NCBI GenBank assembly: GCA_951406725.2
Contig: OX597823.1
Location: 15,686,001-15,750,000 of the forward strand
Direction of reading: 5' to 3'
Source: Octopus vulgaris
Lineage: Eukaryota
DNA: 64,000 nt
The translations under genes were made by a program, and so were the position numbers. Every line of letters starts with the position of its first letter. Positions within the stretch are counted from its first letter, which is position 1. Under the pieces are notes generated by a model. It was not told the origin of the DNA and made no database searches. It worked only from the letters and a program-made list of their open reading frames with translations. Below, piece by piece: positions 11,588 to 53,881 of this stretch.

Positions 11588-12128
11588 CTGTGCGTGAGAA
11601 GACCCGGCAGGACTAGTGAGACCATAACCCGTGGCCTCTACCTGGGATGTAGCCAGTCGACTTATGCATACCTTTCCTTCCTGGGACACAAAACTCCACT
11701 TGTGAAGACCCGGTGAGGCAAGTGGAAATCAGAACCAAAATCGAAGTCGATCAACATCAATGGAAATTGCCGGTGGCACGTAAGCGAACCAGCCGATTGT
11801 GGCCGTTGCCAGCGCTGCCCCGACTGGCACGTAAAAAACACCATCTGATCGTGGCCGTTGCCAGCCTCACCTGGCCCCCATGCCGGTGGCACGTAAAAAG
11901 CACCATCCGACCGTGGCCGTTTGCCAGCCCCGTCTGGCACCTGTGCCGGTGACACGTAAAAAGCACCCACTTCACTCATGGAGTGGTTGGCGTTAGGAAG
12001 GGCATCCAGCCGTAGAAACATTGCCAGATCAGACTGGGCCTGGTGCAGCCTTCTGGCTTCCCAGACCCCAGCTGAACCGTCCAACCCATGCTGGCATGGA
12101 AAGCGGATGCTAAATGATGATGATGATG
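11588..12128 (+). mobile_element. RTE LINE 3' end / 3' UTR with internal GGCACGTAAAAAGCACC subrepeats and (GAT)n tail
   Basis: Near-identical, in reverse complement, to 24905-25455. Confidence 0.85.
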
Positions 12129-12789: not shown

Positions 12790-12826
<37 letters not shown>

Positions 12827-12827
<1 letters not shown>

Positions 12828-13125
12828 TAATTGCAGCATGGATGGAAGGTGTTTCTAAGCCATTTAAAAACACACAAAAACCGTTAAGTTTACTTCAACA
12901 TGTAAATTTAACTTGCCAAAATATTTTTGTCGCTTTGAGACCGCGACCTGTTCACTGACAAAATTCCGTGCTGCATCAGATGCAGTACGGAATTTTGTCA
13001 GTGAACAGGTCGCGGTCTTATAACGACGAAAATATTTTGACAAATTAAACTTAAATGTTGAAGTGAATCTAACGGTTTTTGTGTGTTTCTTCAATGTTTA
13101 TAAGCACCTTCCATGCTGCAATTAT
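12827..13125. mobile_element. ~300-bp near-perfect palindrome (inverted Penelope-like pseudo-LTR pair) between (TA)n tracts, in PSMB3 intron 1
   Basis: Arms are symmetric about position 12978. Each arm carries a hammerhead-like motif reading outward. Confidence 0.7.
12994..13044 (+). ncRNA. Candidate variant type-I hammerhead ribozyme (G3:C8 core)
   Basis: Stem I UUUGUCA/UGACAAA; core GUGAACA plus an extra G; stem II GUCG/CGAC; GAA; palindromic stem III AAUAUU; U17. Confidence 0.6.
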
Positions 13126-14366
13126 TTCCATTCCAGCACACGATCTCATATCAGATCACTTGCTATGCAAGTACATCTCCACAATATATATATACACACA
13201 TATATATATATATATATCTGTATCTATCAGACTACCGGATGTTAATTATTACTGGTTACAATGTGCTCCCTTGCAGAGTTGTAGTTTTCAAATGATGCCA
13301 TGCTGATGGCTAAGTGAATAGGCCAACATTACCCCTGAATGGAATGCTAGTTCATTGCAGTGTTGTCAATTCACAGGTGAGTGAACTAGCTCAAGTACAA
13401 TGCATTGCTGGTCTGGAAATCAGAACCACAATCTTGTGTTTATGAGTAAAGCAACCTAACCATTAGACCATGCAACTTCATACACACACATGGCTATATG
13501 GTCAAGAAGTTTGCTTATGAACCACATGGTTTCAGGTTCATTCCTATTGCACGGCACCTTAGCGGGGTGTTTTGTGAGTGGCTTTGGTAGATGGAAATTA
13601 AAAGAAACCCACTGATTGGATATATGTGCACATCTCTTTATTCTTCTTGTACCTTTGACACTGCTTGATGAGCACCACCGCCATACGAGCAGTGTCATTT
13701 GATTTCAATCGTCTGTGAAGACACGTCTAGCTATGGGGAAATATTATCTGGTTTGGAAACAAGTGAGGATTGGTGACTGTACAAAATCTGCCTCGACAGA
13801 TAGATGTCAAACTGATGATGATGATCACTATCATATATCAAATTGACATTTTAGACGCGAAATGACATGATGGTTCAGGTTGGAGAGACTTTGAATAGAG
13901 GTGTGCTCAATCAGAGCGTACCCAGGGCTAATACATCCATACACAATTTACTTTGCTAAGATTAGATTAGCTCCTTTTCATAATTTTGTGTCGGAACATG
14001 GAAATATCATTCGTCTAATTTTATAACCATTGTACGCTATAAAATTAACTACATTATAGACAAAATAGCGTGTTTATTTAATTACAGCCCTTTAAGTCAT
14101 GAATTAAGATCTCAACGAAATCAAGAGTACTAATAAAGTACTGAGGTCTATAAAATCGACTGTTCCCTCCCAGCGTGGATCTTAGATCCATGAAACATAG
14201 GACAGTAGCATAGTGAAGGGAGATAATATAAATTCAATGACTGGCTACCTCGGTAAAGGTTTGCAATACAAAATCAACGAAACGACACACACACACATAT
14301 AACTGCAAGCTCTATTAGCTTGATAATTTAAATTTTATTTAACCAATATGTGAGTTTTATAACAAA

Positions 14367-30344: not shown

Positions 30345-31420
30345 TGGTGGGGTTGTGTTAACCGCATGTGGAGAAATGATAGTAGAGAAAAAATTATAAT
30401 AAGGCAGAATGCTAAATTGAAGGTAAATTTTAATAAAAATGGGTGTATGAAAAATTAAAAAAGAAAAAACAATAAACCAAACTGGCTTTCATTGCAAGGC
30501 AAATTTTCATGATTTGGAAGGGGAAAAATTTTTTTTAAATTGAAGAAGGGGACAAAGAAATTTACAATGTTTTTTCAAAAAAATAATAATACATATATAC
30601 AAAAAATAATAGATAAGTATACCAATACATTGTAGAATCTTTATGCTCTTAGAGTTCAATAATAGTCCTTGGAAAAACCTCTTTGGAGGATTAGGATGCA
30701 TGTGTTTAAATGTAGTGTATATTTTGAAAGAGTGGGGTAATTGTGTGTCAAAACAGGAAATGGGGTAGGAGTTATTTAGTTCCTGTGAGTAAGGGGAGAC
30801 AATTTTGTGGATTTTATGCTCTTTAATTGGAATGATGGATTTTTTGTCAAACAGGATGCTTATATCAATTTTTTGTCAGATAGGATGCTAGAAAAAGGAG
30901 AATGGTCACTGTGGAGTTTGCATATTAAGACGTGTTTGGAATTTTTCAATAAAAAGATTCTCCTTGTTGATTCTTTCTTGTGTAGAAATTCTGTCTTTAC
31001 ATGTTGAACCGTCCAACCCATGCTAGCATGGAAAGCGGACGTTAAACGATGATGATGATGATGATGATTGGTAGAAAGTGAATATGTGAAATTTGGGATT
31101 TTTATCTCTAGCGCAAGAGTCTATGTGGCTACTGAGTGGAATTTGACAGTATTGTGGGAGATTTATCTGTTCTTTATGGACTGCTACTCTTCTGCGTAAA
31201 GGAAGGCTCATTCCTCCAACATAATTGTATTGGCAACCAGTGCATGTGAGAACATCGATGAGGTTCTTGGAGGAATTTTGTTCCATGTTTGAAAGTAAAT
31301 TCAGAGCCTTCAAGTATTCTGATCAAAATATCAGAATTCAGTCTATACATAAATGCAAGAATAAAATTCTTCGTCTTCATAGGGCATTTGAATTAAAGCA
31401 ACAGATCTTCATCAGAGTGA
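30345..31420 (-). mobile_element. Penelope-like element fragments, including a GIY-YIG endonuclease (~31069-31290), interrupted by an RTE tail at ~31005-31068
   Basis: SSKNLIDVLTCTGCQYNYVGG...LRRRVAVHKEQI...LSSHIDSC fits a PLE GIY-YIG domain with its CCHH residues. Confidence 0.75.
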
Positions 31421-53720: not shown

Positions 53721-53881
53721 TGATATACTAAAGTTAAAATAATGTAGGACATATATAACTACCTCTCCTAAAAAAGTCTCACAACTTCTGGAATGTACTC
53801 ATATATATATATATATATGTATATACATTTCGTTTTTGGATTTGGTTTGCAAGATTCTTTACATGAGTTCGTGTGTTTAAG

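Follow-up and report, generated by a model that had tools for sequence, protein, structure and literature searches.

The question raised by positions 12994–13044 of the window (the whole analysed stretch of 64,000 nucleotides from Octopus vulgaris) is whether this short segment is a hammerhead ribozyme with an inverted core pair, G3:C8 in place of C3:G8, and, if so, which element carries it and whether it cuts. We put a probability of about 65% on the reading that it is the pLTR hammerhead element of a young PLE, in which C3:G8 was replaced by G3:C8, and that it would be a slow self-cutter in intact elements, needing a second copy or a protein. The features of the locus are listed in Table 1.

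Table 1. Features of the inverted pLTR pair and of the hammerhead motif (window coordinates).
Feature	Position	Strand	Remarks
(TA)n tract, left insertion boundary	12796–12822	.	limits approximate
Second pLTR copy, inverted, head-to-head, without tail	12829–12977	-	
Mirror-arm motif copy	12912–12962	-	G3:C8 retained; 5-bp stem II; G12 to A at 12928
Solo pLTR copy, PLE family A	12978–13183	+	from putative transcription start A12978 to 3' tail end
Minimal type I hammerhead motif with G3:C8 core	12994–13044	+	sequence, covariation
Stem I	12994–13000 / 13038–13044	+	7 Watson-Crick pairs
Core GUGAACA	13001–13007	+	G3 13001, C8 13006, A9 13007
Extra G after A9	13008	+	
Stem II	13009–13012 / 13024–13027	+	4 bp in window copy
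G12–A14	13028–13030	+	G12 is 13028
Palindrome AAUAUU (stem III)	13031–13036	+	
U17	13037	+	triplet UUU; predicted cut directly after
Remnant of first PLE ORF codons	13094–13183	+	frame broken in window copy
Tail of ~55 nt, on one arm only	13128–13183	+	start approximate
(TA)n-rich tract, right insertion boundary	13184–13219	.	limits approximate

All elements of the motif described by the initial annotation were present in the sequence. The hammerhead core (U4 G5 A6, A9, G12 A13 A14, A15.1, and U16.1) was complete at 13002–13036, with G3 and C8 instead of the C3 and G8 of the literal consensus, and helix III could be supplied by the palindrome pairing in a dimer. The annotation as a hammerhead variant stands as far as a hammerhead-derived motif is concerned, on the grounds of position and covariation; the extra G and the palindrome, listed as oddities, are normal traits of PLE hammerheads (PMC4209133; here and below, published sources are drawn on from part of their content). 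The UUU triplet, which had been called unusual, obeys the NUH rule (PMC8495972), and U17 was also found in the canonical relatives L272 and L276. The reported stem II GUCG/CGAC is present in the window arm; its length of 4 bp is a peculiarity of this copy, owing to a G>A change at 13023, where the homologous position is G in 71 of 74 family A copies and the family has 5 bp. The folding energy of the 51-mer was not significant (z = -1.29; 25 of 200 shuffles folded equally well), and the Rfam hammerhead models gave no match at gathering or E-value thresholds, only hairpin models matching below threshold. A 19-nt core pattern occurred twice in the 64-kb window against 0.01 expected. The case against chance is made by position and covariation, not by folding energy.

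An inverted repeat (12829–12977 vs. 12979–13131) holds the motif in its right arm. A transcript through both arms was predicted to fold into one long hairpin (-193.5 kcal/mol) with a hammerhead stem probability of 0.0, and the mirror-arm motif is predicted to be inactive, with A in place of G12; the window copy is therefore probably inert. It would be a passive insertion product: an inverted pair with a tail on one arm, set in a TA tract. Head-to-tail tandem monomers that give circular RNAs, a trait of non-LTR retrozymes, were absent from the locus, which is a head-to-head pair. Comparison of the arms showed 18 differences over 148 positions and distinct loop II types; arm pairs beside young ORFs differ at 2–6 positions only. 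The window arms may come from two templates, or the pair may be old. A composite repeat with 3–4 internal units spaced 52–63 nt was noted at 11595–12110 of the window, and repeats of the same kind occur in other loci.

The arm proved to be a dispersed repeat of ~205 nt with 1,257 candidates in the 2.8-Gb genome, designated family A. Its copies end at two positions ~55 nt apart, often in TA tracts: of 121 aligned copies, 78 had the 3' end at +198 to +207, 41 at +142 to +151, and 2 elsewhere. Inverted pairs were common, one arm often lacking the tail. Two end positions, TA targets, and inverted pairs are described signatures of PLEs (PMC8557442). Upstream of the repeat, across more than 1 kb of simple-repeat-rich sequence, RT and GIY-YIG frames were reached on the same strand as the motif. 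The Pfam scores of these pieces were below the curated cut-offs (RVT_1, E = 0.072; GIY-YIG, E = 1.4e-4). A protein search returned many near-identical family A copies, with frames of up to 839 and 1025 aa, and 99 homologues were found. The frame is a single ORF with RT followed by GIY-YIG, the arrangement that defines an EN+ PLE, and the family also displays partial pLTR tandems, inverted 5'-truncated copies, a tail at one end, and (TA)n targets. The translation contains a CX2-5CxxC linker motif, which is of the Neptune/Nematis type by the description in PMC8557442 and suggests a candidate placement in one of these clades.

The repeat was linked to the RT-GIY-YIG ORF in loci L121, L126, and L131–L142. 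In all 12 loci around long family A frames (L131–L142), an identical G3:C8 motif was found ~1 kb behind the ORF, and a scan of these loci detected no further hammerhead in either the 3' end of the element itself or its pLTR. In L142 the pLTR is continuous with the ORF, whose start lies 50 nt downstream of stem I; when translated, this frame corresponds to the N-terminal region of the 1025-aa frame in L132. Since the repeat runs on into the ORF in L142 and the motif also lies behind the ORF in L131–L142, we place the motif in the pLTR, the site of PLE hammerheads (PMC4209133). The parent element was also sought among 20 loci taken from a Pfam GIY-YIG list and earlier matches; these belonged mostly to an unrelated U3:A8 family. 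This family (L071–L074, L079, and L089, e.g., L071:906–4587) is very young, has a 781-aa RT-GIY-YIG frame that is overlapped upstream by another of up to 479 aa, and carries a U3:A8 minimal hammerhead in its pLTR; a GIY-YIG fragment on the minus strand of the window (30924–31274) is 41% identical to it. Beside family A copies on one contig, a common frame of 138–142 aa was seen (L124:3281–3694, L125:3526–3951, and L122:6272–6697), which suggests duplication of a segment that includes part of an unrelated gene.

G3:C8 is the state of family A as a whole. Exact matches to a 21-nt pattern numbered 6,691 genome-wide with G3 vs. 202 with another base, and reversed controls gave 0. Among the first 100 G3 matches listed, 97 had C8; among the first 100 non-G3 matches listed, none had C3:G8. 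A further sample was drawn without reference to the motif: 77 loci, selected through their flank or protein, yielded 74 copies. G3:C8 was present in 63 of these copies, G3 in 73, U17 in 73, and C3:G8 in none. Aligning genomic copies, the check proposed in the initial annotation, showed G3:C8 to be family-wide. Position 8 (13006 in the window) was the most variable of the non-CpG core positions: it differed in 10 of 74 copies (G in 4, A in 3, T in 3), compared with 0–1 of 74 at most others. These variants lay scattered over different subfamily backgrounds and formed no subfamily of their own; a subfamily with a G3:G8 mismatch was not supported. No change at position 3 or 8 above 5% was seen in four DNA or unlabelled runs with four organism labels. 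A family of G3:C8 motifs with another second pair in stem II was not seen either (174 matches vs. 325 in the control).

The same core was found in an older family, to which 22 of 30 loci from a pattern search belonged; the other 8 were family A. The majority sequence of the older family was identical to young family A at 99 of 136 flank positions (~73%), and the copies agreed with this majority at ~75% identity. N7 is C or U in this family, the palindrome is 4 nt long compared with 6 nt in family A (A 15, U 15, and U 18 of 22 at positions 15.2, 16.2, and 16.1), and outer stem I has G (12/22) opposite C (12/22) where family A has U-A; the palindrome and the outer stem I pair had been left free in the search pattern. 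When positions 3 and 8 were allowed to vary, 184 matches were obtained; the first 100 comprised C3:G8 in 66, G3:C8 in 15, and others in 19 (tallied by eye). Family C, which emerged from this search, has a canonical CUGAAGA core, with the inner stem I and the start of stem II the same as in family A; its protein is represented by a fragment only. A few of its copies also differ at position 9.

Sister family B, with 57% protein identity to family A, carries C3:G8 at the homologous place, ~420–640 nt behind the ORF. In the 30 loci examined (L151–L180), C occupied position 9 in all 29 that had the motif; this C9, also present in L272, suggests that the clade may tolerate decay of the core. A 67-nt piece on the minus strand of the window (53811–53877) resembles, at 78% identity, the stretch that immediately follows the pLTR of family B. 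Of 31 loci from metagenome relatives, 7 had the motif behind the ORF (4 with C3:G8, 3 with U3:A8, none with G3:C8), and L272 (2497–2504) combined U3:A8 with C9; in 8 of 15 long metagenome loci, no motif was detected with the patterns used. Viral contigs gave 49 pattern matches, of which one passed the stem filter, apparently by chance. In a protein tree built without reference sequences and without the older G3:C8 family, families A and B paired as sister groups (100/99), and the relatives with C3:G8 or U3:A8 fell outside this pair. In a tree of the sequence behind the motif, 19 rows of families B and C grouped together (100/99) and separated from the 26 rows belonging to the G3:C8 lineage, with one mislabelled row (L340, which carries the family A motif) and two long-branched older copies. 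By parsimony, G3:C8 would have arisen once from C3:G8; we infer that the swap is old and persisted across successive families.

Comparison across families showed that positions 3 and 8 covary as a pair, in agreement with the initial description of the change as compensatory. A standard 3-8 pair was kept in all 16 cross-family rows (C:G in 7, G:C in 5, U:A in 3, U:G in 1), where G3:C8 represents one evolutionary event and its five rows are not independent. For the 3-8 pair and stem II together, 79 of 79 cells were paired, and for the inner stem I and the palindrome, in 10 rows aligned in register, 88%; none of 500 shuffles was as high in either case, a control that is inflated by relatedness among the hand-picked rows. 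Palindrome pairs were kept in relatives with changes on both sides. U4, G5, A6, G10.1, C11.1, G12, A13, A14, and A15.1 were invariant in all 16 rows, and the core was retained across families except for position 9 in family B and L272. Helices I and II, with G10.1-C11.1, are thus backed by covariation, and stem probabilities in a young copy were 0.7–1.0.

As for activity, two copies would pair through the AAUAUU palindrome to make stem III, with cleavage expected after U17. For the monomer, a 1-bp stem III was calculated to cost ~5 kcal/mol to close (-7.9 vs. -13.3 kcal/mol open). The swapped dimer (-27.2 kcal/mol) was level with two open monomers (2 x -13.3 kcal/mol), and a non-hammerhead dimer fold was ~4 kcal/mol more stable than the swapped dimer. 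These modelled energies fit the weak, dimer-dependent activity of PLE minimal hammerheads (PMC4209133), as well as the partial rescue seen, with protein assistance, for the C3G/G8C mutant of the anole element (PMC11167929). Partial rescue by the C3G/G8C double mutation is reported for hammerheads including a PLE hammerhead that needs its protein (PMC11167929, PMC8495972).

The starts of the copies bear on the same question. Of 29 copies chosen by their 3' part, 20 start at or before +14 and hence span the scissile bond; one starts exactly at the predicted 3' cleavage product. An extra G precedes 16 of 20 distinct copies starting at AGATG, where full elements have C or T. The shared start was observed at window position 12978 and in L005, L006, L014, L032, L043, L053, L056, and others. 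The extra G is likely a cap copied from uncut RNA, marking the transcription start of the element; in L1, an untemplated G at the 5' end has been associated with the cap being reverse transcribed (PMC9341517). Sequence resembling a branch point and a splice acceptor lies directly upstream of the start in full elements. Splicing as the cause of the +1 starts is less favoured than a copied cap: a single G is shared and the preceding letters differ. No splice joint was seen in contigs of RNA-guessed runs covering the pLTR, such contigs being blind to ends, strand, and level. On the simplest reading, reverse transcription would initiate internally at the tail and copy back to the capped start of uncut RNA. 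Since most reverse-transcribed RNAs appear to have been capped and uncut, cleavage would be slow, late, or dispensable. In the anole PLE, uncut RNA is the main substrate and cleavage is dispensable for insertion in vitro (PMC11167929).

The same observations could mean that the motif descends from a hammerhead and no longer cuts, being kept as a fold (for protein binding, positioning of the RT start, or structure of the 5' leader) or simply carried along. We regard this as unlikely, with an appreciable chance left to it. It would account for the derivation of most copies from uncut, apparently capped RNA, for C9 in the young sister family B, and for the greater variability of C8 compared with its neighbours, and it agrees with the dispensability of cleavage in vitro and with the successful proliferation of PLE clades without canonical hammerheads (PMC8557442). 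However, the core positions named above are invariant across all rows, and the 3-8 pair, which exists only in the active conformation (PMC3884650), is a standard pair in every family examined. The palindrome, too, was retained through a 2-nt change in length, and the C8 variants, spread over different backgrounds, have not given rise to a subfamily.

We consider it very improbable that the inverted locus itself is what matters, as a 149-bp hairpin giving small RNAs or host regulation with an incidental hammerhead. Although both arms fold into one hairpin and miRNA models match at its centre below threshold, these Rfam matches are far below gathering scores, and inverted pairs are routine both in family A (27 locus entries with both arms, some of them duplicates) and in PLEs generally (PMC8557442). 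A chance look-alike within the repeat is less credible still. The insignificant folding energy, the lack of an Rfam hammerhead match, and the single viral-contig match that passed the stem filter are what speaks for such an origin, but the motif has the same position and architecture in families with canonical cores and all its helices covary; the canonical sister families effectively refute this reading. We therefore keep to a pLTR hammerhead with a swapped core that would cut slowly in intact elements. A bolder form of this view, which we consider less likely than not, is that it would be an active natural G3:C8 hammerhead, the first such in thousands of copies, in a clade where swaps in the core dampen the ribozyme and leave capped, uncut RNA intact long enough for reverse transcription. 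The swaps would then be G3:C8 in one lineage, C9 in its sister, and U3:A8 in relatives.

The motif shares with metazoan PLE hammerheads (Cervera and de la Pena, 2014; PMC4209133) the pLTR location, natural covariation of the 3-8 pair, the extra nucleotide between 9 and 10.1, G10.1-C11.1, the palindromic vestigial helix III implying dimers, and the many solo and opposite-strand copies. It differs in the 3-8 pair, G:C here and unreported in the covered part of that paper, where the natural covariation is U3-A8, and in stem I, which has 7 bp compared with 4–5. A compensatory 3/8 change, again U3-A8, is also among the natural core variants of Perreault et al. (2011; PMC3088659), whose section on core variation does not name G3-C8. 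Another close counterpart is PAc, the anole Poseidon element, whose C3G/G8C mutant (Frangieh et al., 2024; PMC11167929) has the same core and is partly active. PAc also carries its motif at the pLTR-ORF junction, has two 3' end positions that result in a one-end tail, and uses uncut RNA as template. Unlike in PAc, the swap is a natural family state here and not a laboratory mutant, the ORF starts ~50 nt after the motif and not inside it, and the family A protein has the CX2-5CxxC linker. Short palindromic stem III, dimer cleavage, and PLE association are shared with the dimer-cleaving variants of Lunse, Weinberg, and Breaker (2017), as reviewed in PMC6765202.

In the literature covered, G3-C8 appears as a laboratory variant (PMC11167929, PMC8495972, PMC3884650), and no natural case was found there; Lunse 2017, the most likely prior report, lies outside that coverage and may include G3:C8. 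The covered portions of PMC6765202, PMC6155905, PMC7229834, PMC10085705, and bioRxiv 10.64898/2026.07.22.740005 hold no natural G3:C8 case; in the supplement of PMC8557442, neither of the two hits displayed, out of three, matched the motif. Genome searches for hammerheads were built on C3:G8 or U3:A8 cores (PMC4209133) or on CUGANGA strings (PMC8557442), and families with G3:C8 were therefore missed. The chemistry of G3:C8 will not surprise specialists, given the known partial activity of the engineered double mutant.

One overlooked G3:C8 family amounts to ~6,700 copies. The natural swap adds an evolutionary argument for the 3-8 pair in the active fold, and the presence of canonical, G3:C8, and C9 sister families in one genome can serve to test whether PLE hammerheads must cut. 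If the motif is indeed active and down-tuned, the sister families would be a natural allelic series for the purpose of PLE hammerheads.
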